Positions 1 through 32,522 are shown, counted from the stretch's first letter. The stretch is DNA of 45,329 nucleotides from a virus (IMGVR_UViG_2541047734_000008:1-45329), one strand, 5' to 3'. Numbers and translations are program-made. The notes: a model not told the origin generated them from the letters alone.

Positions 1-996
1 CTGTGTGGTCAGGTACGCATTACAGGTGATGCGCGGCTCCGTGCCGCCAAAGCCGTCCGGCACTGACTGGTCGCAGTACTGGCCGATGACATACAGCGCC
101 CATTTATCCACATCCGCCGCACCAAGACGTTTCCCCATGCCGTAGCGCGGATGGGTCAGCATATCCCACAGACACCAGGCCATGTTGTTGCTGTATGCTG
201 GCTTAAACGTTCCGTCCCAGATACCGCTGTATTGCCGCGTCTGCGGGTTATAATTCGACGGCACCTGCAGAATACGCCCGCGCAGATGATAATTACGGCT
301 CACCTGCTGGCTGCCGAACTGCTCCGAATCCACCTGCACGCCGACCAGTGCCGTGTTCGGGTAGCACTGTTTCACATCGATGATTTCGGTGTATGACGAC
401 CAGAGCGTTTTGTTCTGCAGCTGGTCTGTGGTGCTGTCCGGCGTCATCCTGCGCATCCGTATATTGAACGGGCGCGGCGGCAGGTTATCCACCACCACCG
501 AGGCCAGATACTGCGAGGTGGTTTTGCCCTTAATGGTGATGTCTTTTTCCGTCACCCAGCCACCGTTACGCTGTATCTGAACCAGCAGACGGACTTCCGA
601 CGGATTCCGGTCCCCCTTTGAGGTGGTTTCCACCAGTGCCTGCACACCGAAGGTAAAGCGCAGACGGTCGATGTTTGCCGACGTGATGGTGCGGGTGATC
701 GGCGTGTCGTATTTCACTTCCGTACCCAGCACCGTCTCGGAGCCGGAGGATTCAAAACCCTCAGGCGGTGTCTGCTCCTGCTCACCTGCCCGGAACACCA
801 CCGTGACGCCGGAGATATTGGTATTCCCCTCACTGTCCAGCACCGGCGTACTGTTCAGCAGCACGCTTTTTAATCCATCCACCGGACCTTCAACCGGCCC
901 TTCGCTGATGGCATCGATCACACTCAGCAGTTGCGTGGATTTCAGGTTGTCCTTCGCTTCGCGCGGGGTATGCCCCTTACTGCTGCCTTTACCCAT
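1..996 (-). CDS. Host-specificity / central tail fibre protein J, N-terminal part (gene continues beyond window start)
   Basis: Minus-strand ATG at 996 preceded by GGAG; translation MGKGSSKGHTPREAKDNLKSTQLLSVIDAISEGP... stays open to position 1; lambda J-like N-terminus; lies after I in lambda order. Confidence 0.8.
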   Translation of the reverse strand, partial: MGKGSSKGHTPREAKDNLKSTQLLSVIDAISEGPVEGPVDGLKSVLLNSTPVLDSEGNTNISGVTVVFRAGEQEQTPPEGFESSGSETVLGTEVKYDTPITRTITSANIDRLRFTFGVQALVETTSKGDRNPSEVRLLVQIQRNGGWVTEKDITIKGKTTSQYLASVVVDNLPPRPFNIRMRRMTPDSTTDQLQNKTLWSSYTEIIDVKQCYPNTALVGVQVDSEQFGSQQVSRNYHLRGRILQVPSNYNPQTRQYSGIWDGTFKPAYSNNMAWCLWDMLTHPRYGMGKRLGAADVDKWALYVIGQYCDQSVPDGFGGTEPRITCNAYLTTQ

Positions 997-1056
997 TCGT
1001 CACGCTCCATAAACGACAAAACCGCCCGCAGGCGGTTTCACATAAAATGTTTTGCA

Positions 1057-1704
1057 TCAGCGACCAATCACCACAACCTGACCACCATCCCCTTCGTCTG
1101 CCGTGCTGATCTCCTGAGAGACCACCCGCGACCCCACGCGCATTTCACCGTACAGAACGGGCAGAACATTGCCCTGGGCAACCATGTTATCCAGTGAGGA
1201 GAAATAGGTGTTCTGTTTGCCGTTATCTGTACTGGCTGCCGTGGGCGTCCTGGCTTTCGGTGCCAGCATCTGCGCCACTCCGCCCAGGATCATACTGGCC
1301 CCTGCCGCATACATGCCCGATACAGTCGCGGCACCCAGCCAGCCCACAGGGTTCCACCATGCCACCGCAATCAGCGCCGCCCCCAGCACTGCCTGAAAAA
1401 TACCGCCACTTTTGGCACCCGCCAGACGCGGTACGATGTGGATCACGGCACCATTTTTCAGCGGCTCATTCAGACGGGCTGATAATTCGTTTTCACCTGT
1501 ATCACGCCCGGCAATCCGTATCTGATACCAGCCCTCATTCAGTTTCTGACGAAACGCCGGGAGCTGTGTGACCAGTGCCCGGATGGCTTCAGCCCCCGTT
1601 TTCACACGAAGGTCGATACGGCGACCAAATCGTTGCAAATCCCCGTAAAGGCAGATGCGTGCCATGCCCGGTGACGCCAGAGGGAGTGTGTGCGTCGCTG
1701 CCAT
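1057..1704 (-). CDS. Tail tip assembly protein I
   Basis: 215 aa ORF MAATHTLPLASPGMARICLYGDLQRFGRRIDL..., lambda gpI-like; overlaps the 3' end of K as in lambda. Confidence 0.85.
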   Translation of the reverse strand: MAATHTLPLASPGMARICLYGDLQRFGRRIDLRVKTGAEAIRALVTQLPAFRQKLNEGWYQIRIAGRDTGENELSARLNEPLKNGAVIHIVPRLAGAKSGGIFQAVLGAALIAVAWWNPVGWLGAATVSGMYAAGASMILGGVAQMLAPKARTPTAASTDNGKQNTYFSSLDNMVAQGNVLPVLYGEMRVGSRVVSQEISTADEGDGGQVVVIGR

Positions 1705-2225
1705 TTGTCGGTGTACCTCTCTCGTTTACTCAGTTGTTCAGGAATATGGTGCAGCAGCTCGCCGTCGCCACAGTAAATGGCGGCATGATTCGGCACCGAT
1801 GAACCAAAACAGCACAGCAGCACGTCGCCAGGCTGCGCCTCTGTCAGTGGGACACGGTAAAAACCCGTTGCCTCCATATTGTCAAGATAGAGATTCTGGC
1901 CGTGACGCCACCAGTCATCCCCGCGATGAAAATCCGGCATCTCAATTCCCGCCAGATGGTAAGCGTCCCGGAACAGCGTGTAACAGTCCGTCACCCCGTG
2001 CTCAAAGCGCCGCCCGGTGAGATGCGGCACACAGCGGAATTTATGAATCGCCCCCCGGCAGACCAGCCACCACGGCAAATCACTCTGCACCTGCAGCCGC
2101 CGGTCAGCCTCACTCAGCCAGGGCAGACCACCGGGGTGGCTGTGGACCAGCGCCACAATCTCACCCTGCATCTCTGCCCGCAGCCAGTCCTCCGGCGACA
2201 TCCGGAAATACGCCTCCGGCTCACC

Positions 2226-2233
2226 GGAGATAT
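2226..2233. repeat. 8-bp target-site duplication GGAGATAT (left copy) of the IS66-family element
   Basis: GGAGATAT directly abuts the IS terminus at 2226..2233 and again at 4766..4773. Confidence 0.8.
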
Positions 2234-2318
2234 GTAAGCGTAAACTGACCGCCGTATGTAGCCATCAGACGAGAATTGGTAACTTAGACGCCCATCTGAT
2301 ATAGACGGACATCTAAGT

Positions 2319-2744
2319 ATGGAATTACAGGACTGGCGAAAAGAACCTCGTAAAAACTATTCGAATGAATTCAAACTTCGTATGGTGGAACTGGCATCAC
2401 AACCTGGAGCTTGTGTTGCACAGATTGCACGTGAAAATGGCGTCAATGATAATGTTATTTTCAAATGGCTCAGGCTCTGGCAGAACGAAGGGCGTGTTTC
2501 GCGGCGTCTTCCGGTAACGACCTCTTCTGACACTGGCGTTGAATTATTACCTGTAGAAATAACGCCGGATGAGCAGAAAGAACCTGTGGCGGCCATTGCG
2601 CCGTCTTTATCCACTTCCACTCAGACCAGAGTCAGTGCCAGTTCCTGCAAGGTGGAATTCCGTCACGGTAACATGACGCTGGAAAATCCATCGCCAGAGC
2701 TGCTCACGGTGTTGATCCGTGAACTGACCGGGAGGGGAAGATGA
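2319..2744 (+). CDS. IS66-family accessory protein TnpA (orf1)
   Basis: 141 aa, MELQDWRKEPRKNYSNEFKLRMVELASQPGACVAQIARENGV... HTH-type; first ORF of an IS66 triad. Confidence 0.8.
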   Translation: MELQDWRKEPRKNYSNEFKLRMVELASQPGACVAQIARENGVNDNVIFKWLRLWQNEGRVSRRLPVTTSSDTGVELLPVEITPDEQKEPVAAIAPSLSTSTQTRVSASSCKVEFRHGNMTLENPSPELLTVLIRELTGRGR

Positions 2745-3091
2745 TCTCACTCCCATCAGGTACCCGTATCTGGCTCGTTGCCGGCGTTACCGATATGCGT
2801 AAATCCTTCAACGGACTGGGAGAACAGGTACAACATGTGCTGAATGATAATCCCTTCTCCGGTCACCTGTTTATCTTCCGTGGCCGACGGGGTGACACCG
2901 TCAAAATTCTTTGGGCTGATGCTGATGGTCTGTGCCTGTTCACCAAACGCCTGGAGGAAGGCCAGTTTATCTGGCCTGCGGTACGTGACGGCAAGGTATC
3001 CATTACCCGCTCGCAACTGGCAATGCTCCTCGATAAGCTGGACTGGCGTCAGCCAAAAACATCCAGCCGTAACTCACTGACAATGTTGTAA
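2741..3091 (+). CDS. IS66-family TnpB (orf2)
   Basis: 116 aa, overlaps orf1 stop (ATGA); MISLPSGTRIWLVAGVTDMRKSFNGL... typical IS66 Orf2. Confidence 0.8.
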   Translation: MISLPSGTRIWLVAGVTDMRKSFNGLGEQVQHVLNDNPFSGHLFIFRGRRGDTVKILWADADGLCLFTKRLEEGQFIWPAVRDGKVSITRSQLAMLLDKLDWRQPKTSSRNSLTML

Positions 3092-3121
3092 AAAACTCCT
3101 GACCGCATTATAAAAACGGTC

Positions 3122-4735
3122 ATGAGTCAGAAATACCTCATTCGCATCGCAGAGCTGGAAAGGTTGCTCTCTGAGCAGGCTGAAGCCCTCCGTCAGAAAG
3201 ACCAGCAACTGAGTCTGGTTGAAGAGACGGAAGCCTTCCTGCGCTCTGCACTGACACGTGCCGAAGAAAAGATCGAAGAAGATGAACGGGAAATAGAACA
3301 TCTGCGGGCTCAGATAGAAAAACTGCGCCGGATGCTGTTCGGTACCCGTTCTGAAAAACTGCGTCGTGAAGTTGAACTGGCTGAGGCTCTGCTGAAACAA
3401 CGTGAACAGGACAGCGATCGTTACAGTGGGCGGGAAGACGATCCTCAGGTTCCCCGCCAGTTGCGACAGTCGCGCCATCGTCGTCCGTTACCGGCACACC
3501 TTCCCCGTGAAATACACCGCCTGGAGCCAGAAGAAAGCTGTTGCCCGGAGTGTGGCGGTGAGCTGGATTATCTGGGGGAAGTCAGCGCTGAACAGCTGGA
3601 ACTGGTGAGCAGTGCCCTGAAAGTGATCCGCACAGAACGGGTAAAAAAAGCCTGTACAAAATGTGACTGTATTGTTGAAGCACCGGCGCCGTCCCGCCCG
3701 ATAGAGCGTGGTATCGCGGGCCCCGGATTACTTGCCCGCGTGTTAACGGGAAAATACTGCGAACATCTGCCACTGTATCGTCAGAGTGAAATCTTTGCCC
3801 GCCAGGGTGTCGAACTGAGCCGGGCCTTACTCTCCAACTGGGTTGACGCGTGCTGCCAGTTAATGACACCGGTGAATGATGCCCTGTACCGTTATGTAAT
3901 GAACACCCGCAAGGTTCACACTGATGACACACCGGTAAAGGTACTGGCACCGGGTCAGAAAAAGGCGAAAACAGGGCGTATCTGGACGTATGTCCGGGAT
4001 GATCGCAATGTGGGTTCGTCATCTCCTCCAGCGGTCTGGTTCGCGTACTCGCCGAACCGGCAGGGGAAACACCCGGAGCAACACCTCCGCCCCTTCCGGG
4101 GTATCCTGCAGGCGGATGCGTTCACAGGTTACGACAGGTTGTTCAGTGCAGAACGTGAAGGTGGTGCACTGACAGAAGTTGCGTGCTGGGCCCATGCCCG
4201 GCGAAAAATCCACGATGTATACATCAGCAGCAAAAGTGCGACGGCAGAAGAAGCCCTGAAGCGAATCAGTGAACTGTACGCCATCGAGGATGAAATACGG
4301 GGATTACCGGAGTCAGAGCGTCTTGCCGTCAGGCAGCAGCGAAGCAAAGTGTTACTGACGTCGCTGCATGAATGGATGGTGGAGAAGAATGGTACGCTGT
4401 CGAAAAAATCCAGACTGGGCGAAGCGTTCAGCTATGTACTGAATCAGTGGGATGCCCTCTGTTATTACAGTGATGACGGTCTGGCGGAGGCGGATAATAA
4501 TGCTGCGGAAAGAGCGCTTCGTGCAGTCTGTCTCGGAAAGAAAAACTTTATGTTCTTTGGCAGCGATCACGGCGGCGAGCGTGGAGCACTGTTGTACGGG
4601 CTGATCGGCACCTGCCGTCTGAACGGTATCGATCCGGAAGCGTATCTGCGCCATATCCTGAGCGTACTGCCGGAATGGCCTTCCAACCGAGTTGATGAAC
4701 TCCTGCCATGGAACGTAGTACTCACCAATAAATAA
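3122..4735 (+). CDS. IS66-family transposase (orf3)
   Basis: 537 aa with N-terminal coiled-coil/leucine-zipper, CxxC...CxxC zinc motif and DDE-type core; third ORF of the triad. Confidence 0.85.
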   Translation: MSQKYLIRIAELERLLSEQAEALRQKDQQLSLVEETEAFLRSALTRAEEKIEEDEREIEHLRAQIEKLRRMLFGTRSEKLRREVELAEALLKQREQDSDRYSGREDDPQVPRQLRQSRHRRPLPAHLPREIHRLEPEESCCPECGGELDYLGEVSAEQLELVSSALKVIRTERVKKACTKCDCIVEAPAPSRPIERGIAGPGLLARVLTGKYCEHLPLYRQSEIFARQGVELSRALLSNWVDACCQLMTPVNDALYRYVMNTRKVHTDDTPVKVLAPGQKKAKTGRIWTYVRDDRNVGSSSPPAVWFAYSPNRQGKHPEQHLRPFRGILQADAFTGYDRLFSAEREGGALTEVACWAHARRKIHDVYISSKSATAEEALKRISELYAIEDEIRGLPESERLAVRQQRSKVLLTSLHEWMVEKNGTLSKKSRLGEAFSYVLNQWDALCYYSDDGLAEADNNAAERALRAVCLGKKNFMFFGSDHGGERGALLYGLIGTCRLNGIDPEAYLRHILSVLPEWPSNRVDELLPWNVVLTNK

Positions 4736-4765
4736 GCGTCAATACGGTGCTCCGTTGACGCTTAC

Positions 4766-4773
4766 GGAGATAT
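4766..4773. repeat. 8-bp target-site duplication GGAGATAT (right copy)
   Basis: Identical 8-mer immediately outside the right IS terminus. Confidence 0.8.
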
Positions 4774-4890
4774 TCACGCAGGGAAAATATCTTTCCCCCT
4801 CCGGCGTTCTCACCACGAAGCCGCACGACTCTGCTGGCGCACATCGCCGGGCGTGCGCCAGAATCGCTGATTCTGTCTCTGTCATGGGAT

Positions 4891-5589
4891 TTACTGCGAA
4901 AGTTTGTTAATGGAAAGGAAGCCGCCAAAGTTGCCGACGTTATTGCGAAACTTACAGCCGCTCAGGCATTTGCTGCATTTATCCTTCGTGATATCGGACG
5001 TCGGCTGGTCATATTCATCCGCGACAGCCGGACCGTGATAACCGCACTCATCGCCGCGATAGGTCCAGGTGCAGGTGTTGGCCAGCATGATACGCCCCGG
5101 AAAAACAGCGCCATCCGTTTCCGTCGGCGTGGACAGTACAAAGGAGGCACTCACCGCGCTCAGTTCGCTGCACTGCTCGATGCGCCAGCGGCTGATCACC
5201 TCCTGCTCCGGATCGGCGTCTCTGTTTCCGTTGACGAAGTTCACCGCATCCAGAAAACGGGCGTAAACCTTACGCCTGACCACCGTTCCGCCGACCAGAC
5301 TCTGCAGATCTTCCGCCATCCCGGTGACCATGCCGTACAGATTAGAGACTTTAAGCGTTGGCCTTGCACTGGCTCCTTTGCCGTTCATCTCAAATCCGCT
5401 TCCCTGAATGGGATAAGCCTGATACTGCCGCCCCTGCCAGGTGACTGGTTCACCTTTTTCGTTCTGCTCATTACAGAAGAAATAACGATCTCCGCCGACC
5501 TCTGTCAGATCAATTTCCCAGAGCACGACCAGCGCGGATTGCTCCGTTTTAGTGCACTCATTGAGTGTTTCCTGCTGTATATCCTGCAT
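4891..5589 (-). CDS. Minor tail protein L
   Basis: 232 aa, MQDIQQETLNECTKTEQSALVVLWEIDLTEVGG..., lambda gpL-like; start overlaps M stop (ATGA). Confidence 0.85.
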   Translation of the reverse strand: MQDIQQETLNECTKTEQSALVVLWEIDLTEVGGDRYFFCNEQNEKGEPVTWQGRQYQAYPIQGSGFEMNGKGASARPTLKVSNLYGMVTGMAEDLQSLVGGTVVRRKVYARFLDAVNFVNGNRDADPEQEVISRWRIEQCSELSAVSASFVLSTPTETDGAVFPGRIMLANTCTWTYRGDECGYHGPAVADEYDQPTSDITKDKCSKCLSGCKFRNNVGNFGGFLSINKLSQ

Positions 5590-5945
5590 CAGTGAGTGAC
5601 CTCTTCAAAGGTACAGTTAAAATCGGTATACATGGCATTATCCGAAATGCTCCACTCCCTGCAGACAACCCGGACAGTCCTGTTGTGTTTTGGCGGACGC
5701 CACAAAAAAGCACGAATCCCGGCATGACGGGATAAAAAACTGTCCAGCGCGGCACGGGAATATTCATCTGTGACACGAAATACCGGTTTAAACGTTTTCA
5801 GATCCGCATTCAGACCACCAGCCCGTCGCTGTTCATATCCGTCACCAAACTTTACCGTAATAACTGATGGCTTTCGTGTCGTCTCCATCCCCTCACGGGG
5901 GATCCAGTTAAAAACTTCAGGCTCAGGCACTGTACAATCCTCCAT
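5589..5945 (-). CDS. Minor tail protein M
   Basis: Lambda gpM-like (..KFGDGYEQRRAGGLNADLKTF..); start placed at the second Met (MEDCTVPE..) to limit overlap with H; the ORF track starts at 5975. Confidence 0.7.
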   Translation of the reverse strand: MEDCTVPEPEVFNWIPREGMETTRKPSVITVKFGDGYEQRRAGGLNADLKTFKPVFRVTDEYSRAALDSFLSRHAGIRAFLWRPPKHNRTVRVVCREWSISDNAMYTDFNCTFEEVTH

Positions 5946-8900
5946 CCCGACGCGATGACTGCATAATTGACACAACCCTGCTGTCGATCAGATCCACCAG
6001 TCCCCTGGCTGAGCGCGCATCTATCTCGCCATTGCTCCCTTGATTCTGAATGCTGATGTGATACACGGGAGAATAAACAAATCCACCGCCACCATTCACA
6101 TTTCCAATGGCCCTGACCCCAAGAGAGCCGTCCGCTGCCCGTGTCAGTGGCATGATTGCTTCAGGCCCGGCCTCGCCCATCAACCCGGCACCTTTCGCAA
6201 AAGCAAAATACGTCGGTGTATCCACAATAGTGTTACTGTAAGCACTCAGATTTGCCGATGTGTAAACACCACCTTTTGCGTTTGCCACTGCACCGGAAAG
6301 CCAGTCGCCGACTGTACCAAGCCATCCTCCGGCACCGGACATGCTTTTGGAAAGTGACTTCAGCCCGTTAACGATGGCAGCGTTCATCAGAATTTTTGAA
6401 ACTTCCTGGAGAATTGAACTCCCCCAGTTTCTCCAGTCCACAACATTTCCGGCCAGTGCATCGGAAATATTTGATACCAGCCCGTCCATCGTGGAAACGA
6501 CAGCATCTGCCGCCTGTGAAGCATAATCGGTGGCACTGTCTGCCCAGTTGGTCAGTCCCTCCTGGAGTCCGGCATTCCAGTTATTACGTAAAGCATCGGC
6601 CTTTGCATAATAATTCTGCTGATCGCTGAGACGCTCTTCCAGATATTTTTTATTCAGTTCTTTCTCCTGTTTCCACAGGGCTTCTTCAATTTCTCCGGCC
6701 TGATACTGTCTCAGCAGCTCGTTATTTTTCTGCTCAAACGCCTGCCGGATACTCCACATTTCCTGGAGTCGTTCACGCATCCGTGAGCCTTCACCATATC
6801 CCAACAACTGCGCTTCGTCAGATGCCCGGGCACTGGCATTACTGTCCGCCAGACTGCTCTCATACGCAGCAAGCTGCTCACGAATCTTTTTCTGGTCGAT
6901 GAGTGCTGCATTCTGCAAAAGCGTTTTTTTCTGCGCTTCTGACAGGGTTGATAATTCGCCCTGACTGACCTGATATTTCATCTTAGCCAGTTCAGTATTC
7001 TGCCCTGCCAGTGCTATTTGTTCTTTTTGCTGTTTAATCAGCCGTTTATAAATATCTTCTGTTTTTTCCGCTTCGGTCTTTTTATGCGCTTTGGGTTTAT
7101 TTGCCTGGTTATTTCGCCAGGCATCCAGTGAGTTATTGATATAATTCTGCCTGGCTGTCTGATACGCCTCTCCCACAAAGCCGAGATCATCCGCAGCATA
7201 ACCCAAGCGGGCACGCTCACGGGCTTCCCCCTTCAGGCGGGACAGAGCCAGTTCGCGCTCGCTGTTATTCAGTGCAGTCTGCTGTTTATCATCCAGGGTT
7301 GCCTGTGGTAGCCGTAACGGTACATTCACCAGCCCCTGTCGCTGCTGAAGTAATTCATTACCGAGCCCGAGAAGGCGATTAAACTCGGTATGCTGCCCAT
7401 TCATGATCAACAGGGACTGATACGCTTTGTTTTGTTCCGCGGCCTGTTGACGGATCAACGCCACCCGTCGCTCCTCCAGCCCGGCAAGCACATCCTGAAT
7501 GGATTGCGCTTTGCCCTGCATTTGTGTGAGACGGGACTGTTCAACTGCCAGTTGATTTGTTGCTTCTGCAAGCCCTTCTGTGACAGTTTTTACCGACGTC
7601 ATGTGGTTAATCATAAAACCGTTATCGGTTGTCCAGCCCGGGTTTGCCAGCACATACTGATAGCCAGCAATTTTTTCCTGTAAGGATTTAATCTTACTTT
7701 TCTGCTCGTCAATTAACCTGTTTTGCTCATCAAGTGCCTGCCGCGTCATTTCCTCATTATCTGACGCTTCAGGAAGCGACATTGCCGACGTTTTCTGGCG
7801 AATTTCGTCGATTGTTGCGGCATACTGGCGTGCAGATTCTCTGGCCTGCTCCTGATTCTGATACATCGTGTACCAGGCCGTCGCCCCCAGCATGACGAGT
7901 CCCGGCACACCACCAACCAACCCCAGCGCACCACTTAACAGACGACTCCCCACTGACGTGACAGTATTCAGCGTTGTCTGTGCCGCTGTTCTGGCCGCAA
8001 TATTACGGGTAAGTGACGCCTGGGCAGCTGTCAGCTTCGCTTCTGCTGCGGCCTGCCTTTCGGTACCGCGAGCAGCAACAACCGCCTGTTGCGCACGATA
8101 AACCGCCGCACGCGCCCTGGCGGTTGCTATCTGTGTCCCCCGAAGTTGCGCTTCAGCAAGAGCCACTTCGTTTCTGGCTGCAGTAATTAATCCGGCAGTT
8201 GCAGATCCAGCAGACGACGCCATATTGCCAAAATATCGGGCTACCCCGACGGCAACCAGTGCGCCAGCTGCAGCAGCCACGGTATCAATATTGTCTGCAA
8301 CACCATTCAACACCCCGGTGAGTGTCTTTGTCACTCCGCTTGCCTCGTTCGCACCACCAACCCAGGCCATAAAGGCGTTTTCAACTTTGGTTGCAGAGGA
8401 TGAAACAGTATCAGGCATTGCTGCATATTCATCACGCAACGCCCCAAGCTGACTAATCAGTGCAGGAACAACCTTATCGGCGGTCAGTTTTCCGTTATCC
8501 GCCATGGCCTTCAGATCCTTACGGGCAACACCCATTCCCGCAGCCAGCGCACGAATAACACGATCGCCGTTCTCATTCACAGAGTTAAATTCTTCACCGC
8601 GCAGCACTCCCTGCGCCAGTGCCTGACTGAACTGCGTGATCACCGAACTGGCTTCTGCTGTACTGGCACCGGATAATTTCAGGCCCGTGGAGATCGCCTC
8701 GGTGACTTTCAGTACCTCCTCAGAACTGTAGCCATACTCCCGCATGGAAGCTGCAGAGCGGGCAAAAAGGCTGGCGTTATCAGAAAACGCCGTTCCCGTT
8801 CTCTGGCTGATTGCCATTAATTCACGTTGTGATACCTGAAAATCATCACTGGACTGTGAAGCCTGCTTCAGACGGGCATTTACTGAATTCCACTCATCGG

Positions 8901-9168
8901 CGAGAGAAATAAGATGACCGGTAGCAAAAGCTCCGGCAAATGCCCCCGCCATATTCAGTGCCGAAGATTTAGCTGTATTTATCTGATCCGTCACTTCTGC
9001 CAGTGCACGCCGCATTTCACGGGATGCAGCAGCGGACTGCCGGCCTCCGTTCTGCATGGTACGGTAGTAATCCTGCCCCATACGCGAAGCCCGGGAGATC
9101 TCTGACTGGAATGACCGGGAATTTGCCGAGATTTTAATAATCAGTTCACGTAATGTCGCCACACTCAT
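5923..9168 (-). CDS. Tail tape measure protein (gpH-like)
   Basis: 1081 aa, Ala/Gln-rich coiled-coil centre, positioned between GT and M. Confidence 0.85.
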   Translation of the reverse strand: MSVATLRELIIKISANSRSFQSEISRASRMGQDYYRTMQNGGRQSAAASREMRRALAEVTDQINTAKSSALNMAGAFAGAFATGHLISLADEWNSVNARLKQASQSSDDFQVSQRELMAISQRTGTAFSDNASLFARSAASMREYGYSSEEVLKVTEAISTGLKLSGASTAEASSVITQFSQALAQGVLRGEEFNSVNENGDRVIRALAAGMGVARKDLKAMADNGKLTADKVVPALISQLGALRDEYAAMPDTVSSSATKVENAFMAWVGGANEASGVTKTLTGVLNGVADNIDTVAAAAGALVAVGVARYFGNMASSAGSATAGLITAARNEVALAEAQLRGTQIATARARAAVYRAQQAVVAARGTERQAAAEAKLTAAQASLTRNIAARTAAQTTLNTVTSVGSRLLSGALGLVGGVPGLVMLGATAWYTMYQNQEQARESARQYAATIDEIRQKTSAMSLPEASDNEEMTRQALDEQNRLIDEQKSKIKSLQEKIAGYQYVLANPGWTTDNGFMINHMTSVKTVTEGLAEATNQLAVEQSRLTQMQGKAQSIQDVLAGLEERRVALIRQQAAEQNKAYQSLLIMNGQHTEFNRLLGLGNELLQQRQGLVNVPLRLPQATLDDKQQTALNNSERELALSRLKGEARERARLGYAADDLGFVGEAYQTARQNYINNSLDAWRNNQANKPKAHKKTEAEKTEDIYKRLIKQQKEQIALAGQNTELAKMKYQVSQGELSTLSEAQKKTLLQNAALIDQKKIREQLAAYESSLADSNASARASDEAQLLGYGEGSRMRERLQEMWSIRQAFEQKNNELLRQYQAGEIEEALWKQEKELNKKYLEERLSDQQNYYAKADALRNNWNAGLQEGLTNWADSATDYASQAADAVVSTMDGLVSNISDALAGNVVDWRNWGSSILQEVSKILMNAAIVNGLKSLSKSMSGAGGWLGTVGDWLSGAVANAKGGVYTSANLSAYSNTIVDTPTYFAFAKGAGLMGEAGPEAIMPLTRAADGSLGVRAIGNVNGGGGFVYSPVYHISIQNQGSNGEIDARSARGLVDLIDSRVVSIMQSSRRDGGLYSA

Positions 9169-9176
9169 TCTCCGGA

Positions 9177-9199
9177 CGAAAAAAACCGCCGAAGCGGTT
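9177..9199 (-). terminator. Candidate intrinsic terminator between T and H
   Basis: Minus strand AACCGC-TTCG-GCGGTT hairpin followed by T7, then GGAGA and the H start codon. Confidence 0.45.
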
Positions 9200-9207
9200 A
9201 TGTTGAC

Positions 9208-9896
9208 TCACTGAGACACTATTAAAAGCGCGTTTTCCAGTCCGGCAAATGGATCTGAGACGCCTTCTGTCTGCTCTTGTTCCCACTGAAGAAGCGCATC
9301 ATTCAGTGGGACTTTGACACCCTGCGCACCGTAAACCGCAGAAACTATCTGGGCAGCCCGGATATCAGCCCGCTCGTCACCCAGCGGGCTGAACCTGTCA
9401 AATTCTGCCCACATCATGATTTCTGATGCGGACATTTCCCGGCGTAACTCTGACAATGTGCGCCCGATCCTGAGCGCCAGCATCATCAGAAAACGCATCC
9501 CCGGAAGCTCTACTTTTTTTTAACCTCGCCGGCATCACTGATCAGTTCCAGAGACTGCCGAAGAAGCCGCGCATGCACCGGGCCATACACGGCAATCACC
9601 TGTTCACGATCATCCTCTGAAAATACAGGTTGCAGTCCGGTATCACACAGAACATCAATGAACAGTTCAACATCTGCCTCCAGATTTCGGCGGGCGCGCT
9701 CCGCAACGGATAACGGTGTCTCATCATCTTTTGCTTTAACGATCTCCTGCCAGCGCAACCAGGCTTCTGCAGAAGGTTCCCGTAATACAACCGTTGCCCC
9801 TTCCCATTCAGGCACATCAACAGTTTTATGGCGAAACCCCGACATCGTTGCCAGTGCCAGATTGCGGATATTTTTAGTCATCACATCTATCCTCAT
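9208..9896 (-). CDS. Tail assembly chaperone G and -1 frameshift product GT (G = 9510..9896; T extension 9208 to about 9520)
   Basis: G (128 aa) ends ..GEVKKK* on an A8G run; the 96 aa ORF 9208..9498 lies in the -1 frame and is open across the slippery run; position upstream of tape measure. Confidence 0.75.
9513..9521 (-). other. Programmed -1 ribosomal frameshift slippery site (minus strand A AAA AAG) for G to GT
   Basis: Eight T on plus strand at 9514..9521 (eight A on the coding strand) immediately before the G stop codon TAG; the -1 frame continues into the T ORF. Confidence 0.65.
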
Positions 9897-10600: not shown

Positions 10601-10610
10601 ACTCGTCTCC

Positions 10611-10638
10611 TGAAAATAAAAAACCCGCCAGCGGCGGG
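10611..10638 (-). terminator. Candidate intrinsic terminator or attenuator upstream of major tail gene
   Basis: Minus strand CCCGCCGCTGGCGGG hairpin followed by TTTTTTATTTT, immediately before the V RBS. Confidence 0.45.
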
Positions 10639-10659
10639 TGGGTAAAATCATTAACGACC

Positions 10660-11785: not shown

Positions 11786-11793
11786 GAGTCCTC

Positions 11794-12099: not shown

Positions 12100-12110
12100 T
12101 TGGGCAACCT

Positions 12111-12299: not shown

Positions 12300-12350
12300 G
12301 ATTCTTTCACCTGTCAGAACAGGGGGCGCACTTCTGCGCCCCCTGAATGA

Positions 12351-13556: not shown

Positions 13557-13570
13557 CGTATTTCTCCTGA

Positions 13571-21122: not shown

Positions 21123-21123
21123 A

Positions 21124-21684: not shown

Positions 21685-21733
21685 CGGTGTACTCCATAAA
21701 GCTGAAAAAGGAGGCCGAAGCCCCCTTTGCTCA

Positions 21734-23152: not shown

Positions 23153-23401
23153 TTATTGTTTCACTGGATCCCGCATTCTGCGTCTTATTTTCCACAGATA
23201 TTCGATCATCGCTTCCACCTGCTCACGGTTGGTTGCGAAAATTTCCCCGGTCAGTGAGCTACGCAGAAAATCATGATGATCCACAACAAACAACGCATCG
23301 GAAGAAAGCAGACGGCGATATTTTTTTGCTGTCGTGGTTTCCAGATCATCAAAACCATGAAACTTTTTATGTTGCTGGACTTCTTCAAATGTCACTGGCA
23401 T
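23153..23401 (-). CDS. Island hypothetical protein
   Basis: 82 aa ORF in operon orientation. Confidence 0.4.
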   Translation of the reverse strand: MPVTFEEVQQHKKFHGFDDLETTTAKKYRRLLSSDALFVVDHHDFLRSSLTGEIFATNREQVEAMIEYLWKIRRRMRDPVKQ

Positions 23402-23934
23402 GTATCCCCCTTTGCTGCCCGGCGCTGGCGCTTGTGCTTCTCATTCAGCGCCATCAGCCGCGTTTCTGCCTCCTGCTGTTCCTGTGGTGTCACTTCCCCA
23501 CATGGCTGGCCTTTCAGGTCGTAGCGTACCCCACCAGCAACCAGGGCGCGGTAATAGCGCGGAGACTGCGCATAAGATGCCAGCGTCGCACGTAATGCCC
23601 CCGGCCCGAATGCCAGCCCCCTGACGGCGAGATCCTGCATCAGGTCGTCGAATATTCCCACCTTAAGCGGCTTCGGTGCTTCCCTGTTGAATAAGTCAGG
23701 CCACATCTCAGTGAGGCGGTTAACGCGCCTGCGGTTTTTGCGCTGGCGTTTGGTCATATGCCGCCACGGTGTCACCCCTGTGGGCTGCCCTTTGCGGCTC
23801 TGCTGTGCGTTCTGATTGCCGGGTATCACTTTATGCGCCGATGTGGTTTTATCCCGCTCTTGCGCCGCCTGCGTCGTTTTCTGCGGCGTGCCGTAAATGC
23901 CTTTCGGTTTTCGGTTAATGGTCAGCTTTGTCAT
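23392..23934 (-). CDS. ProQ/FinO-domain RNA-binding protein (island)
   Basis: 180 aa, basic N-terminus, ..LTEMWPDLFNREAPKPLKVGIFDDLMQDL...RATLASYAQSPRYYRALVAGGVRYDLKGQP.. resembles the FinO/ProQ fold signature. Confidence 0.6.
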   Translation of the reverse strand: MTKLTINRKPKGIYGTPQKTTQAAQERDKTTSAHKVIPGNQNAQQSRKGQPTGVTPWRHMTKRQRKNRRRVNRLTEMWPDLFNREAPKPLKVGIFDDLMQDLAVRGLAFGPGALRATLASYAQSPRYYRALVAGGVRYDLKGQPCGEVTPQEQQEAETRLMALNEKHKRQRRAAKGDTCQ

Positions 23935-23970
23935 GCCTTCCCCTGTAATTACTCTGTTCGCTGTTGTGAA

Positions 23971-24396
23971 TTAAAACGGTATGTTATCCCCGTACAGGTC
24001 ATCGTGCTGGCCTGTCTGTTGTTTTGCCCTGTTCAGTGCGTCAGTAGCTTGGCTCTGCTGGCCTTTTTTGCCGCCCGGTCGCGCCGTTCGCGCACTGATT
24101 ACGCTGTCTGCGATGACCTGCCAGCCCTGCCGCGTTTCGCCGTTCTGGCCTGTCCACTGGCTCACCTGCATGTTACCCGCCACGCTCACCAGTTCGCCTT
24201 TGTGGTGCTTTGCCAGTGCGTCGGCCTGTCTGCCAAACGCCAGGACGGATAACCACATCGTCGCCGTTCCGTCATCTGCCTGGCTGCACGGCAGGGGAAC
24301 CGCCATACTCGCCATCGCCATTTGTGTCCCCTTGCTGGTGGTCTTTAACTGCGGGTCAGCCACCAGCCGCCCGTAAGCCGCTATCTGTGCTGTCAT
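23971..24396 (-). CDS. Single-stranded DNA-binding protein (island)
   Basis: 141 aa OB-fold-like with acidic C-terminal tail ..DDLYGDNIPF. Confidence 0.75.
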   Translation of the reverse strand: MTAQIAAYGRLVADPQLKTTSKGTQMAMASMAVPLPCSQADDGTATMWLSVLAFGRQADALAKHHKGELVSVAGNMQVSQWTGQNGETRQGWQVIADSVISARTARPGGKKGQQSQATDALNRAKQQTGQHDDLYGDNIPF

Positions 24397-24644
24397 GCTG
24401 TCTGCTCTCCGGTTTTAACGTTGATGGTTGTCACCTGTTCCGCTTCGGCAATCTCCCGCTCTGTCAGCGTGGCAAAATTTGCCGCCGCCGTGGTCATGAA
24501 TGCGCTTATCAGTTCGGGATGTGCTTTCGCGTATCCTTCTCCGGCATGGCGGTCTATTGTTCTGATTGCCACCTTTAAGGCATGCTCTGTCATGTCTAAT
24601 GCGCGATATTTTGGCGCTGTCTTATCTCTGGTTTTTCTGGTCAT
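24393..24644 (-). CDS. Island hypothetical protein
   Basis: 83 aa; overlaps ssb start. Confidence 0.4.
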   Translation of the reverse strand: MTRKTRDKTAPKYRALDMTEHALKVAIRTIDRHAGEGYAKAHPELISAFMTTAAANFATLTEREIAEAEQVTTINVKTGEQTA

Positions 24645-24648
24645 TCCT

Positions 24649-24848
24649 CACTGCTCCCCACTTTTACTACCCACTTTTTGAAATTACCCAACGTCTCCCC
24701 ACTTCTTTTTTTTGTGATTCTAACGTGATGTTTTTCAATGTATTTTTTATTCCCCACTTTTTGGGGTATATACAGGTGGGAAAGTGGGGAATCGCGTTTC
24801 AATTTTGTTAAATTCCCCACACTCCCCACTTTTACTACCCACTTTTTA
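24649..24848. repeat. Iteron cluster / candidate island replication origin next to rep
   Basis: TCCCCACTTTTACTACCCACTTTTT at 24649 and again at 24822; additional CCCCACTT copies in both orientations; AT-rich centre. Confidence 0.7.
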
Positions 24849-26261
24849 CAGTGGGCGCACGTCATCACCGTCAATAGCAATAACGCCATCACCTTCCAGC
24901 TTGTACAGCCAGCGCCGGAAGTGTTTCATCTCATACCCCAGCTTTTTCATATCATCGCGCAACAACGGAATTGTGCATTTATCGCCGCGCTGTGTGCGTG
25001 AACGGATACAGCCCCATAGCGCGGCATGATTCTCCGTCTTGTTCCCGGCTTCCTCGATGCGCTCCAGTTCAACAGGTGGGCGCGGCTTATCCACAACCAC
25101 CAGCGACGTGATTAACTCCCCGTCAGTGTCGGTAAAAAGCTCTACCACGCGTAAATCATATGCAGCCTCTTTCAGTTCCTCCGCGTCCTTCATTTTGGTA
25201 CAGGAGATAACCAGGGCTTCACTGTCCGCACCTTCACGGCGAATACGGTATTCAGCGTCCAGAGATGCACGGAATGCACTGGAACCACGCGCTCCCTTTG
25301 TTTCATCCTTGCCGGAATGGTGAACCACCAGCACCGTGGCCCCTGTGCGTCGTTTCAGTTCGTCACATCCACGGATAAACGCCCCCATATCCCGCGCGTC
25401 ATTTTCATCATTACCGCCAAAACACCGCGCCAGCGTATCCAGAATAATCATGCGTACCGGTTTACCCGTTTCCCTTTCAACCTGGCGGGAAGCGATGACC
25501 ATTTCATCGACATCAAGCGGGACTGCCGGAAAAATCGGGCGGTTTACCAGGTACAGATTTTCCACCCGTTTATCATTAACGATTTCCCATGCCTTGATAC
25601 GGCGGGGGACACCAATGCCACCTTCACCGACAACATACATCACCGAACCATGCGCCACCCTGCGGCCTCCCCAGTGGCGACCCGTGGCAACATGACACGC
25701 CCAGGAACACGCGAGGAACGATTTATAGGAACCGCTCGCGCCGTATGTGCTGCACAATGAATTAGCCGGAATCACGCCCTTAACGACATAATCAAGCTGT
25801 GTGTCGTATCCTGCAGATCCAATACTCATTGGTAGCGTGGTTTTTCGCTGGCTGTATTGCTCGTCAGTAAGTATTTCCCCGCGCTCTGCCTGTTCGCGGA
25901 TCCGTTGCAGGTAGTCGTGCCAGTTCTCCAGCTTCTGGTTGTGCATTCCCTCAGGGTAATAATTCGCATCCCGTACACCTGCCGCCGCCAGCTTTTGCCC
26001 GATAGCATTAATATTTGACGGCTTGATGTGGCCTGCCTTGTACAGCCGGACACAATAGCGACCATCGTCGATAATTTTCAGGTCTGCCAGTTCGTCAAGC
26101 TGGCTGTCTCCAAGCCATACAGGCGGAACATTGTCGCCAGCAAGTCGCCCGTCCTGCTCCTGCCATTGTTTCGCGTGCGCCCAGGCATCACTACCCGCAA
26201 AAATAATGACTTCGGTCATTTTGTCGTGCGGCTGTTTTTTTAAGTTCGGTGCCAGTTTCAT
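24846..26261 (-). CDS. Island replication initiator: primase/helicase-type Rep (RecA-like AAA ATPase)
   Basis: 471 aa; Walker A-like GASGSYKSF, Walker B MIILDTL; sits beside iterons as PICI pri-rep genes do. Confidence 0.7.
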   Translation of the reverse strand: MKLAPNLKKQPHDKMTEVIIFAGSDAWAHAKQWQEQDGRLAGDNVPPVWLGDSQLDELADLKIIDDGRYCVRLYKAGHIKPSNINAIGQKLAAAGVRDANYYPEGMHNQKLENWHDYLQRIREQAERGEILTDEQYSQRKTTLPMSIGSAGYDTQLDYVVKGVIPANSLCSTYGASGSYKSFLACSWACHVATGRHWGGRRVAHGSVMYVVGEGGIGVPRRIKAWEIVNDKRVENLYLVNRPIFPAVPLDVDEMVIASRQVERETGKPVRMIILDTLARCFGGNDENDARDMGAFIRGCDELKRRTGATVLVVHHSGKDETKGARGSSAFRASLDAEYRIRREGADSEALVISCTKMKDAEELKEAAYDLRVVELFTDTDGELITSLVVVDKPRPPVELERIEEAGNKTENHAALWGCIRSRTQRGDKCTIPLLRDDMKKLGYEMKHFRRWLYKLEGDGVIAIDGDDVRPL

Positions 26262-26557
26262 TTTTTCCCCCTGAATCCGTTAAGCATTTTTCTTATGGCC
26301 TGAATATTTGCCCGTGCCTTCTCTTTGCTGGTGGGCTGATTGCGCGGCGCGGTCTGTACCAGGGAAAAATCACGCCGGAACTGATAAACAGGCATCACAC
26401 AGTCATAGCCGTACCCATCACGGCGGTAAATAACGCACCGTCCCGCCACGCTTTTAATCGTTACCGTGCCGCCATAGTTATCCCGGAAAATATCGCCGGG
26501 GCGGATTTCAGGCCGAACGGAGCCGCTGGCAGTAAAGCCAGAATTTTTCTGTTTCAT
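26258..26557 (-). CDS. Island hypothetical protein
   Basis: 99 aa ORF, operon context. Confidence 0.4.
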   Translation of the reverse strand: MKQKNSGFTASGSVRPEIRPGDIFRDNYGGTVTIKSVAGRCVIYRRDGYGYDCVMPVYQFRRDFSLVQTAPRNQPTSKEKARANIQAIRKMLNGFRGKK

Positions 26558-26562
26558 GGTTT

Positions 26563-26772
26563 TTATTCCTCTGCGCGGGCCTTGTTGTGTATTTCCATAA
26601 CCGCGTTTAATTCATCAATAACCGGGGTTAACAGAGTGCTGAAAGCAGAAAATAAATCCCCCCCCTGTTCGGCATGAACTTCGGTTAATTTAATTAATAC
26701 TGCTTTCATTTCCAGTGCCCGGTTTAATGCATTCTCAGAATGAATAAGAACATCGAAAGGGATTTTATCCAT
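26563..26772 (-). CDS. Island hypothetical protein
   Basis: 69 aa ORF. Confidence 0.35.
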   Translation of the reverse strand: MDKIPFDVLIHSENALNRALEMKAVLIKLTEVHAEQGGDLFSAFSTLLTPVIDELNAVMEIHNKARAEE

Positions 26773-27025
26773 GGCTTACATCCTCCGTGAATTTTCTTCT
26801 GTACCGTGCCTCTGCCACATATTCCGCATAGTCCGACGCAATATTGAGAATATCGCTACCCGTTCCTGAATGTTCGGCGGTTTCCAGTAAAAAACTTGCA
26901 GCTTTTACCATGTCAGCAACACATAACAGCGCAATATCTGTATCTTCCGGTGCGCCATCAAATTCCTGTTTCAGGGCATTAAAACGATCATCACGCATAA
27001 CCCCCCCCATTTTCACAATCAGCAA
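26765..27025 (-). CDS. Island hypothetical protein
   Basis: 86 aa ORF. Confidence 0.35.
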   Translation of the reverse strand: MLIVKMGGVMRDDRFNALKQEFDGAPEDTDIALLCVADMVKAASFLLETAEHSGTGSDILNIASDYAEYVAEARYRRKFTEDVSHG

Positions 27026-27230
27026 TTAGGATGGCTTTAGCCTCATTCAGTGCCATATCAGCGGTAAGCTGTGCGTAGGCCAGCGAATGGGGGATTATTT
27101 CCCCTGTATATTCCGTCTCTCTGGTAATGTGTTTTTCTGCGGTTGCTGCCGTGCATGAAATATCAATCAGCGCGTGCATCAGCGTTTTGATGGCTTCGGC
27201 GGCTGCGTCCGGACGGGTGTTATTGCACAT
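26991..27230 (-). CDS. Island hypothetical protein
   Basis: 79 aa ORF. Confidence 0.35.
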   Translation of the reverse strand: MCNNTRPDAAAEAIKTLMHALIDISCTAATAEKHITRETEYTGEIIPHSLAYAQLTADMALNEAKAILIADCENGGGYA

Positions 27231-27426
27231 GGCGCACCCCCTGACGAATACGGGCGGCGAATACCATCACACAGCCAGCCGGGGATTGCTGGCGTGCTTC
27301 CTGTTCGCTGGTGGCCTCAATGGTAATCACGCGCGGTTGTGCCGTGCTCAGGGCGATAAAACGCCAGATATATTTATTCAGGTTGTGCGAGTCCCGCCCT
27401 TGCGGGTGTGTGGTATGATTTCTCAT
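27220..27426 (-). CDS. Island small protein, first gene of leftward operon
   Basis: 68 aa from MRNHTTHPQGRDSHNLNKYIWRFIALSTAQP..; GAGG RBS; the track's 358 aa extension upstream is not protein-like. Confidence 0.45.
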   Translation of the reverse strand: MRNHTTHPQGRDSHNLNKYIWRFIALSTAQPRVITIEATSEQEARQQSPAGCVMVFAARIRQGVRHVQ

Positions 27427-27502
27427 AGCTACCTCGATACTCTTGCTATCGTTGGTGGTTAGACGCCCTGCATGTGTTGCGAGCACTGCGGGGCGTTGCT
27501 TA

Positions 27503-29355: not shown

Positions 29356-29418
29356 AAAAATATCACCTATAAAAAAACCCGCCAAAAGACGGGTTGATTA
29401 TATCTCATTTAATTTAGC

Positions 29419-30841: not shown

Positions 30842-31012
30842 GTGATTTATAACCCGTTTTTGCAATACACAGTGCAATACACAAATGATGAAAACAGCCA
30901 GAACCTTCCAGAAAAAACAAAAACGACGAACAAGAAAAAATCTTTTTCTTTCATTTGGTTACTAAAAAAATCAGGACAGGTCGCACTGTTGTTACGGCGT
31001 GATGTTACTTTC

Positions 31013-32040
31013 TTGGTAAAAAAATTCACCCGCGCAGAGACCTGTTCTTTCGCTTTTTTCGCCAGGCGACGCAGATCATCCCAGCGTTTACAGATGCCCA
31101 GGCCGGGATTCGCTTTCTGCCAGACCGTTTCATCAAACGGATCATCTCCCTCATCGAGGGTGTAAATAATCGCAAAGTAGGAGTCGTCTTTTACCGCGCC
31201 CTCCACGTCGCTGTTATAGCCACGCAATACCTTGATGGCGTAATCACGCTGCTCGTAACAAATCCCTTCCTTGTTAAACCCTGCCGTGGTGATACCAAAT
31301 AAAAGGGACTGCAGACGGGCACCGGTTGCCGTTTCCAGAACGTCCCACACGTCACGGGTTTTATGTGCATGCAGCTCATCAATAATGGCGCAGTGGATGT
31401 TCAGACCATCCAGGTTGTTTGCATCCGAAGAAAGCGGTTCAAATTTTGATGCGCTCTGCTCCTGGTAAATCGCCAGCTTGTTGAAATCAAACAACCGCCC
31501 GAGTGTCGACCGGGCTTTTCTGACCATATTTTTGGCGTCTTCAAACACGATTCTGGCCTGGTCACGCGTGGTTGCGGCTGAATACACCTCAGCTCCGCCT
31601 TCACCATCTGCCCCCGTCATATACAGGCCGATACCCGATGACAGAGTTGATTTTGCGTTTTTACGGGCGACTTCGTTGTACGCCGTCCGGAACCGGCGCA
31701 CCATCACCGGACGTCCGCTGCCATCGCTGCGCATGACAACTTCCCCGGTCTCTTCATTGACCAGCGGAATGACAAAACCAAAAATATTAATGAGGATAAA
31801 TACATGCCAGTCCATCAACTCAATGGGCTGGCCTGCCAGCGCCCCTTTTACATGAGGCACAAATTTGTAGAAATTCAGGATGTGCTGCGCACGGGGTTCA
31901 CTGAAATAAATCCCCCGCTCTTCGCCGTACTTCAGATCATCAAGAAAACGCTGGCAGGCCAGGCGGACAAATTCGCCAGCAACAATTTCTCCTGCAACAA
32001 CACGTTCGGCGTAGCGGATCCCGTCAGCCACTTTTGCCAT
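31013..32040 (-). pseudogene. Prophage terminase large subunit, N-terminal (ATPase-domain) fragment
   Basis: 397 aa ORF with Walker-type ATPase region; homology to island TerL residues 1 to ~310 ends at ..ARVNFFTKK, then about 45 unrelated codons run into island DNA near the integrase. Confidence 0.85.
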
Positions 32041-32522
32041 CAGTCTCTCGCTTTTAAAAGCTCCGCCAGCGGATCAACATCATCCGGTCCGGCGATATTT
32101 ACTTTAGCCCGGCTTGCCGGTGACATACCAAACTCTGCAAGCATTGCCCGGATCCGCTTCCAGGCATCCGCTTTCATTGCCGCCGCGGGGTGCGCCTTAA
32201 TCAGTACATCACCGCTCTGCGTTTCCGTGCGGTAGGTATACCCCTCAACATCGAGTGTTTCGCAGTGATGCCGATATTCGGTGTAGGCTTCCACCAGCAG
32301 CTCGAGCGCACGCGCATCAAGCTGAGAAATGATCCCTTCCGCATTCAGCTCTTCCGCCATTCGCCTGAACCAGTACTTCCCCTGAGCCCCTAAATGCTGC
32401 GGAATTTTAGGAAGACCTTTTTCATCCTTTTTAGCGGTTTTTTTGTGGTCTTTAACGGGGCGCTTTGAGGGGTTACCTCGAATCAAATGCAGGCGTGGCG
32501 GGGTTTTCGGAGGTCCTGACAT
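32040..32522 (-). CDS. Prophage terminase small subunit (P27 family)
   Basis: 160 aa, MSGPPKTPPRLHLIRGNPSKR..; immediately upstream of the terL N-fragment. Confidence 0.8.
   Translation of the reverse strand: MSGPPKTPPRLHLIRGNPSKRPVKDHKKTAKKDEKGLPKIPQHLGAQGKYWFRRMAEELNAEGIISQLDARALELLVEAYTEYRHHCETLDVEGYTYRTETQSGDVLIKAHPAAAMKADAWKRIRAMLAEFGMSPASRAKVNIAGPDDVDPLAELLKARD

Follow-up and report, generated by a model that had tools for sequence, protein, structure and literature searches.

A probable helper-embedded, capsid-forming island in the terminase gene of a lambdoid prophage whose tail gene K carries an IS66-family element

The split terminase gene and its attachment sites

The window analysed here is the whole 45,329-nucleotide viral sequence IMGVR_UViG_2541047734_000008 (positions 1-45329), in which nearly all genes lie on the minus strand. 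Along that strand, from high to low coordinates, the early and regulatory region comes first, followed by Q with RusA and DUF968, four tRNA genes, the lysis genes, the HNH endonuclease, terS and a fragment of the terminase gene terL; protein families were assigned with Pfam. A 14.65-kb insert follows, and after it come the remaining part of terL, an HK97-type head module and a lambda-type tail module that closes with L, K, I and the beginning of J. The surrounding element, hereafter the helper, is a lambdoid prophage of the E. coli type; its head is of the HK97 type, its tail of the lambda type, and its packaging genes (P27-terS/HNH) are of the cos type. Two of its genes are interrupted, terL by the insert and tail gene K by an insertion sequence (IS), and both belong to morphogenesis, as the first-pass annotation of this sequence had pointed out. 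The insert in terL is very probably a satellite of a known kind, a helper-embedded phage-inducible chromosomal island (HE-PICI) of the capsid-forming type (cf-PICI), and the insertion in K is a separate event.

The two pieces of terL lie 14.65 kb apart, so that the split reported in the first pass is real. The N-terminal reading frame extends another 54 codons beyond the junction, in foreign DNA, to a stop at 30847. At each edge of the insert stands the 7-bp core TTACCAA, which in terL falls within codons 341-343 (...FFTK|HMNVW). On the minus strand, the upstream junction reads ...GTGAATTTTTTTACCAA|GAAAGTAACATC... and the downstream junction ...GAAATATTCTTACCAA|ACACATGAATGTGTGG.... The attP junction expected from the sequence is ...AAATATTC-TTACCAA-GAAAGTAACATC..., and the attB expected in the restored terL is ...GAATTTTT-TTACCAA-ACACATGAATG....

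In-silico excision, joining 32040..31013 to 16363..15634, produced an in-frame open reading frame (ORF) of 1,758 nt encoding a 585-aa TerL. This cured protein is identical at 585 of 585 positions to the intact TerL of E. coli FCI1, a genome that matches window positions 31013-45329 at 99.9%; matches to empty-site genomes begin precisely at 31013. The reconstructed 600-nt junction showed 100% identity to intact terL in two RefSeq genomes, and of the 935 genomes with this terL type, 905 have the junction without interruption. The occupied junction, with the 5′ part of terL followed by the integrase gene, was found in 36 complete E. coli genomes from RefSeq, one of them E. coli 042, and is therefore not an assembly artefact.

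Both island arms carry a doubled TGTATTGC motif, a repeat identified independently of the published HE-PICI motif. Its nearest edges lie 78 nt (upstream) and 133 nt (downstream) from the centre of TTACCAA. The island brings no replacement for the 3′ end of terL and has the same orientation as the late operon: int, alpA, the replication genes and the late genes are all on the minus strand. On this sequence evidence, the terL split is a site-specific integration rather than decay, one that precise excision would heal.

The stop codon (TAA) of the terL frame that reads into the island lies 5 nt 5′ of the integrase ATG (30839-30849). At this distance, reinitiation of int translation on late transcripts of the helper would be feasible.

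Gene content of the island and its place among known satellites

The island spans approximately 16371-31012 (Table 1). All its packaging ORFs (16886..22879) are full length, stop-free and 96-100% identical to their RefSeq counterparts, except for the small ORF at 93.4%; the terS, terL, portal, protease and capsid genes are thus complete, as had been claimed from the sequence. Compared with their helper counterparts, the island head and packaging proteins share only 32-41% amino-acid identity, and no nucleotide similarity between the island and the rest of the window was detected at E <= 1e-3; the module therefore did not arise by recent duplication of the helper's. When the regions upstream of the helper and island terS genes were compared for a shared cos site, the resemblance was weak and limited to a T-run/GAAAT. 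Identity to the annotated counterparts in E. coli ETEC4085 is 96-100% for the integrase, AlpA, Bro-N, SSB and packaging genes, and the accessory and replication gene set (23153..27432) is also annotated in E. coli 2014C-3075. The first alpA overlaps the end of int, and minus-strand terminator-like hairpins follow each alpA. Searches with Pfam and PHROGs found no tail or lysis family among the island ORFs, which bears out the earlier description of a tail-less satellite in a helper-type prophage.

Directly downstream of the RepA-type helicase gene, three copies of a 19-26-nt repeat (CTCCCCACTTTTACTACCCACTTTTT) recur at a spacing of 83-85 bp; from their position and arrangement, these iterons are probably the island replication origin. 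Between the Icd-like repressor and Bro-N genes, two small ORFs of 65 and 62 aa and then two terminator-like hairpins lie on the plus strand (27632-28060), divergent from the rest of the island, in a stretch of about 770 bp without counterpart in the ETEC4085 island. Two candidate features of the island were rejected. Adjacent ORFs matching two halves of phrog_2512 had suggested a frameshift, and the same pair is annotated in 2014C-3075, which makes it a natural variant. A 358-aa ORF (27220-28296) has no family hits and its C-terminus is the Icd-like repressor, so it was regarded as a spurious upstream extension.

HE-PICIs were described in 2023 (Tommasini, Mageeney & Williams 2023, PMC10111431), and the arrangement in terL is already known from that work. 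There, the HE-PICI integrase clade is described as having 14 target sites, distributed over nine late genes of prophages, the late gene being off until the element excises. The attP signature of the clade consists of two co-oriented copies of tgTGTATTGCantgTGTATTGCa, one on each side of the attP centre at distances of 81 +/- 2 nt (upstream) and 132 +/- 2 nt (downstream) (PMC10111431); how the upstream offset of 78 nt measured here compares with the published value depends on the definition of the centre. The island shares integration into a late gene with co-orientation, a short att without replacement sequence and the two arm motifs. It also shows the four-zone order of this class, namely int with two AlpA genes, then Bro-N, then Icd-like, DUF4222, RepA and SSB, and finally the genes from capsid through terL.

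The correspondence extends to one published group. A row of the supplementary table lists Eco1645.15.A_Terminase_1_246 with 14,645 bp, the helper Eco1645.57.potB and the att identity 'ttaccaa' (PMC10111431). This group resembles the window island in target gene, codon, att core, size, the doubled TGTATTGC motif and co-orientation with the late operon, and the published attL and attR island-arm sequences, given for an off-target member, match the window arms (PMC10111431). The related composite in ETEC4085 adjoins potB. The window copy encodes a 471-aa RepA/AAA_25 helicase and ProQ/FinO, whereas the ETEC4085 copy has a 706-aa DUF927 primase and PerC; the window helper further differs from the group example by the IS in K. 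The island is a mosaic in this respect, 2014C-3075 sharing its ProQ/FinO and RepA genes (window 23392-26261) and ETEC4085 having the same att site and a packaging module 98-100% identical.

[quoted passage not shown] For this pair, quantitative PCR and deep sequencing showed excision of the composite, then replication, then excision of the satellite restoring the gene (PMC10111431). Unlike the window island, which supplies a complete set of head and packaging genes, 11capE is inserted in capsid gene E, measures 11 kb, has no terS or terL and is presumed to be packaged by its helper.

In size and in most of its gene content the island corresponds to a cf-PICI. Its 14.65 kb falls within the size of about 10-18 kb of these elements, and integrase, regulatory and replication functions are represented by int, the two AlpA genes, Bro-N, the Icd-like repressor, RepA, SSB and iterons, with neither tail nor lysis genes. 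The cf-PICI prototype EcCIEDL933 has the same order of capsid, protease, portal, adaptor, HNH, small ORF, terS and terL, the same lack of tail and lysis genes and AlpA-type regulation (Alqurainy et al., 10.1101/2022.09.08.507074). It makes small capsids of its own, in which no DNA but its own is packaged, and it relies on the helper for tails (10.1101/2022.09.08.507074). The reported capsid size is T=4. At the nucleotide level, the packaging module is about 81% identical over 95% of its length to the phoQ-roxA island of O157:H7 genomes, which is chromosomal, while the window island lies in a prophage; EDL933 is the O157:H7 strain from which EcCIEDL933 comes, and the compared island may be this element.

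Between portal and connector, the O157:H7 island encodes a head closure protein of 112 aa that is missing from the window (19616-21122), ETEC4085 and 2014C-3075 islands. The helper head-completion protein (11447-11785) is 50% identical to it, and from this comparison the embedded lineage may also borrow the helper protein. The capsid-portal region of the island has a match of about 75% identity in LR881103.1, a 16.5-kb entry titled 'Escherichia phage vB_KppS-Ant, induced prophage'; judging from its length and module, this entry may be a cf-PICI submitted under the name of a phage.

Regulated gene integrity, or active lysogeny, is exemplified by the skin element in sigK and by phi10403S in comK, where excision restores the gene when it is needed. 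The concept has been discussed for HE-PICIs in the 2023 article (PMC10111431). The likeness lies in the programmed excision that restores a gene; the difference is that the gene interrupted here belongs to the helper phage and that the timing benefits the satellite, not the cell.

Taken together, we consider that the insert is a helper-embedded, capsid-forming PICI in the helper terL, with the IS66-family insertion in K being separate, at a probability of about 85%. A split terminase gene next to a second head module is then to be read as an embedded cf-PICI at its att site, reversible by excision, and not as the mark of a dead prophage. Composites of this kind will be misjudged by prophage-intactness calls in which a 'terL pseudogene' counts as a defect. 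The locus is a clean example of a satellite inside its own helper, and no new phenomenon.

Table 1. Coordinates of the features in the window, in ascending order
Feature	Position	Strand	Description
J, tail tip, N-terminal 332 codons only	1..996	-	tblastn with ETEC4085 RefSeq J: residues 1-332, 98.5% identity, stop-free
Tail assembly protein I	1057..1704	-	Intact; Pfam Lambda_tail_I; 215 aa, full length against reference
K distal part, codons 41-247	1602..2233	-	NlpC/P60 and C-terminal JAB part; Prok-JAB profile positions 63-103 only
ISEc23-like IS66-family IS	2234..4765	+	2,532 bp; tnpA 2319-2744, tnpB 2741-3091, transposase 3122-4735, all intact
K proximal part, codons 1-40	4766..4885	-	Includes Glu20 in ESCGF of JAB
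Helper tail genes	4891..11004	-	Intact; L, M, tape measure, T/G chaperones, major tail protein, tail completion gp17
Helper tape measure	5923-9168	-	Intact
Helper major tail protein	9896-10600	-	Intact
Helper head/neck block	11001..15622	-	Intact; includes gp10-like
Helper head completion/closure	11447-11785	-	Intact
Helper gp6-like connector	11794-12099	-	Intact
Helper HK97-type capsid	12351-13556	-	Intact
Helper protease	13574-14221	-	Intact
Helper portal	14199-15440	-	Intact
Helper small ORF	15440-15622	-	Intact
Helper terL, C-terminal part	15634..16363	-	Codons 344-585
attR core	16364..16370	-	TTACCAA
Arm motif, upstream attP arm	16445..16467	-	cgTGTATTGCgctgTGTATTGCt; direct repeat; matches published HE-PICI motif tgTGTATTGCantgTGTATTGCa
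Island terL	16886-18547	-	Pfam, PHROGs
Island terS	18531-18887	-	P27 family; Pfam, PHROGs
Island small ORF	19010-19192	-	Pfam, PHROGs
Island HNH	19176-19616	-	Pfam, PHROGs
Island head-tail adaptor Ad1 (gp6-like)	19616-19918	-	Pfam, PHROGs
Island portal	19908-21122	-	Pfam, PHROGs
Island S78 prohead protease	21124-21684	-	Pfam, PHROGs
Island HK97-fold capsid	21734-22879	-	Pfam, PHROGs
Island small ORF	23153-23401	-	Accessory/replication zone
Island ProQ/FinO	23392-23934	-	Accessory/replication zone
Island SSB	23971-24396	-	Accessory/replication zone
Island small ORF	24393-24644	-	Accessory/replication zone
Island iterons	24654-24848	-	Accessory/replication zone
Island RepA-type helicase (AAA_25)	24846-26261	-	Accessory/replication zone
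Island DUF4222	26258-26557	-	Accessory/replication zone
Island small ORFs (two)	26765-27230	-	Accessory/replication zone
Island Icd-like repressor	27223-27432	-	Accessory/replication zone
Island Bro-N	28441-29019	-	Pfam
Island AlpA-family gene	29080-29355	-	Pfam
Island AlpA-family gene	29422-29640	-	Pfam
Island tyrosine integrase	29636-30841	-	Pfam Phage_integrase and Arm-DNA-bind_3; 402/402 aligned, 99.5% identical to RefSeq product
Arm motif, downstream attP arm	30861..30883	-	tgTGTATTGCactgTGTATTGCa; direct repeat
attL core	31013..31019	-	TTACCAA
Helper terL, N-terminal part	31013..32040	-	Codons 1-343; ORF enters island
Helper terS	32040-32522	-	Intact; P27 family; Pfam
Helper HNH endonuclease	32671-33021	-	Intact; Pfam

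Tail gene K, the proposed cycle and competing readings

Besides terL and K, the helper morphogenesis genes in the window, from L to portal plus I, are all full length. The tail genes upstream of K (4891..11004, with Pfam Phage_tail_L) gave full-length matches at 97.8-100% identity to RefSeq products. Across 100% of its length, the block from L to the 3′ part of terL (4891-16363) is 98.7% identical to phage record ON470580.1, and the value for phi467 is 97.3%; the helper therefore belongs to a lineage that has been deposited as phage genomes, each of these two records being about 38.5 kb long.

In K, the window carries 2,532 extra bases (2234-4765) relative to ETEC4085, confirming that the gene is interrupted. 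The insertion has terminal inverted repeats GTAAGCG... and is flanked by an 8-bp target duplication, GGAGATAT, at 2226-2233 and 4766-4773. With its tnpA-tnpB-DDE transposase order, this duplication and these repeats, it is an ordinary copy of ISEc23 in the IS66 family; it is 99.8% identical to the element of genome 23CRST030, whose transposase RefSeq names 'IS66-like element ISEc23 family'. It sits after K codon 40 (...CVNIS|GEPEAYFRMSPEDW...) and severs the segment with the conserved JAB glutamate. Once the IS and one copy of the duplication are removed, K encodes 247 aa, with Prok-JAB at residues 4-98 (E = 4.8e-14) followed by NlpC/P60.

The IS-K junction occurred in none of the 36 complete genomes with an occupied island site, and the insertion is therefore private to this genome. 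A search of species-representative genomes did not find the exact IS/K junction either, and among complete RefSeq E. coli genomes none covered the right half of the window at 80% or more. In 23CRST030, an argW prophage with a different head module carries ISEc23 at the same K position with the same duplication GGAGATAT (20193-20200 of the compared locus); the IS copies are 99.8% identical and the flanks only 89.6% and 93.8%. In AVS0343, ISEc23 lies 22 bp away in K with the duplication GAAAATAC (about 4170-4178 of the compared locus), and AVS0155 gave an equivalent hit. Such independent insertions within a 25-bp stretch of K point to a target hotspot rather than shared descent.

The long form of K, with JAB and NlpC, is contiguous in 1,721 of the 1,760 phage records that have a K homologue, T1-like phages included. 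The lambda reference NC_001416 annotates a K of 199 aa, starting at the internal ATG that is also present in the K remnant of the window and leaving a 148-nt gap after L. Compared with the window K, this reference is without one G (GGAGGC-TATTTCC), and its first 45 codons thereby fall out of frame. The deletion occurs in only 4 records, and DE3, imm21, imm434, KT232076, LC730321 and PV340536 have the extra base, so the short lambda K is, judging from these records, probably an error of the reference sequence. We consequently rejected the remnant's resemblance to a functional lambda-type K of 199 aa as strong evidence, most lambda-derived records restoring the long ORF. The long form being near-universal and the short lambda K likely artefactual, the N-terminal segment of K is probably needed. 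The insertion in K is the only true lesion of the helper and is essentially irreversible, and the loss of this segment probably leaves the helper with no or strongly diminished tail production. Of the 'doubly disabled' prophage proposed in the first-pass annotation, the K half thus stands as a physical lesion whose effect is predicted from sequence, but the terL half does not, given the perfect 7-bp core, the arm motifs and the fully restored TerL on excision.

A cycle can be proposed in which the first elements (att core, arms, co-orientation, intact int and alpA) come from the window and the induction steps follow by analogy with 11capE/50icd and EcCIEDL933. The island Int recombined at TTACCAA inside the helper terL. 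Upon induction, the composite would excise and replicate, and late transcription antiterminated by Q would pass terS and the 5′ part of terL into int and alpA, raising Int and AlpA. These proteins would excise the island precisely, which would restore the 585-aa terL for the helper. The island would replicate from its own RepA/iteron origin and would package itself with its own TerS, TerL and HNH into its own small capsids, and virions would be completed with helper tails and probably also with the helper head-completion protein, for which the island has no gene of its own. If K is null, neither helper nor island would be infective from this prophage alone, and the island would spread only with K supplied in trans or with tails from another phage.

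With the island and the IS, the composite amounts to about 145% of unit length, as compared with the helper relatives of about 38.5 kb. Lambda tolerates roughly 10% extra DNA (quoted in PMC10111431), and by analogy the composite would almost certainly not fit into one helper capsid. In EcCIEDL933, mutants of helper terL or capsid leave island transfer unaffected, while mutants of the helper tape measure or major tail protein abolish it and leave tail-less small capsids (10.1101/2022.09.08.507074). Natural strains release tail-less cf-PICI capsids, which turn infective once tails from other lysates are added (He et al., 10.1101/2025.02.11.637232). Because of these tail-mutant and foreign-tail results, tail borrowing is an established fall-back of cf-PICIs, and the suggestion in the first pass that the system relies on outside tails appears realistic by analogy.

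Several observations weigh against the embedded island as described here or against the predicted effect of the K lesion. What is proposed above on excision, read-through of late transcripts, capsid size and dependence on tails comes from analogy. J crosses the start of the window, and its distal part, lom, the tail fibres and the prophage ends lie outside. The putative membership of the integrase in the HE-PICI clade is argued from the identity of att site and arms. Seven of the eight cf-PICI core components are present at full length, a single head-tail joining gene (Ad1/gp6-like) standing where two are listed; SatelliteFinder accepts elements lacking one core component as 'Type B'. In K, the internal ATG at 2201 opens a 199-aa ORF with a GGAGG Shine-Dalgarno sequence 11 nt upstream, and no intrinsic terminator was found on the K (minus) strand within the IS. 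Lambda Q suppresses polarity, and another lambdoid prophage could supply K in trans.

How far the composite still works is where the readings diverge. It is possible, although doubtful, that it is dead and abandoned, the IS in K (with loss of JAB and polarity on K-I-J-lom-stf), possibly together with defects outside the window, leaving helper and satellite trapped and decaying. K is indeed physically split by a private and recent insertion (0 of the 36 occupied-site genomes), and loss of helper tails abolishes cf-PICI transfer. Such a trapped composite, also raised in the first pass, matches by analogy the 'abandoned HE-PICI' idea of PMC10111431, where many HE-PICI helpers look truncated and their islands are called 'potentially abandoned'. 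Yet the lysis, Q, morphogenesis (other than K) and island genes examined are full length and 93-100% identical to relatives, with no accumulated decay; att sites, arm motifs, int and alpA are intact; and foreign tails can rescue tail-less cf-PICI capsids. Conversely, an unlikely reading holds that the prophage is not disabled, the IS lying at a tolerated spot and sufficient K coming either from the 199-aa remnant on Q-antiterminated transcripts or from a co-resident prophage. The start codon and ribosome-binding site kept by the remnant and the lack of a minus-strand terminator found inside the IS are consistent with it, as is the recurrence of ISEc23 within 25 bp of the same spot in other prophages, although IS target preference explains this recurrence equally well. 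K relatives are also common, a mixed K/IS junction query having matched 4,531 of 5,426 E. coli genomes, partly via IS copies. Against it stand the conservation of the N-terminal JAB segment from lambda-like to T1-like phages and the probable sequence error behind its sole apparent short-K precedent, the lambda reference.

That the 14.6-kb insert is no satellite and represents what is left of a second phage, a nested or tandem prophage that has lost its tail and lysis genes, would account for the complete HK97-type head and packaging module and for the phage labels that gene finders give to its genes. This is highly improbable in view of the precise 7-bp att boundaries, the two AlpA genes and inward-facing integrase, the Bro/replication/late zone order, the HE-PICI arm motif, the length of 14.65 kb and the lack of nucleotide similarity to the helper. 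The same bounded element moreover recurs in 36 genomes, and its packaging module at a chromosomal locus of O157:H7. For the helper-embedded cf-PICI, a decidedly speculative extension is that this lineage has lost its own gene for head completion and that, with the tail-tip pathway of the helper knocked out by the IS, the composite acts as a natural producer of tail-less, satellite-filled capsids, dependent on the helper for the neck and spread via the tails, and possibly the neck proteins, of unrelated phages; a linked possibility is that the ISEc23 hotspot in K repeatedly disarms the tails of lambdoid prophages. The private insertion, ordinary in itself, offers a possible natural test case for cf-PICI capsids that are released tail-less and later armed by foreign tails.

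Additional genes of the helper

Rfam searches at the gathering threshold did not find the P4-type immunity RNAs C4 or isrK in the island; the hits in the window were sok, DicF and four tRNAs, all in the helper. The tRNA genes (36018-36327) lie downstream of Q and comprise Gly-TCC, Thr-TGT, Lys-TTT and one with a CAT anticodon, which RefSeq calls Ile in relatives. Other helper cargo includes a hok/sok locus (39221-39396), the DicF RNA (44877-44928) and a QueH epoxyqueuosine reductase (39464-40150). A GNAT acetyltransferase is encoded on the plus strand (33474-33959) between the helper lysis genes and HNH.

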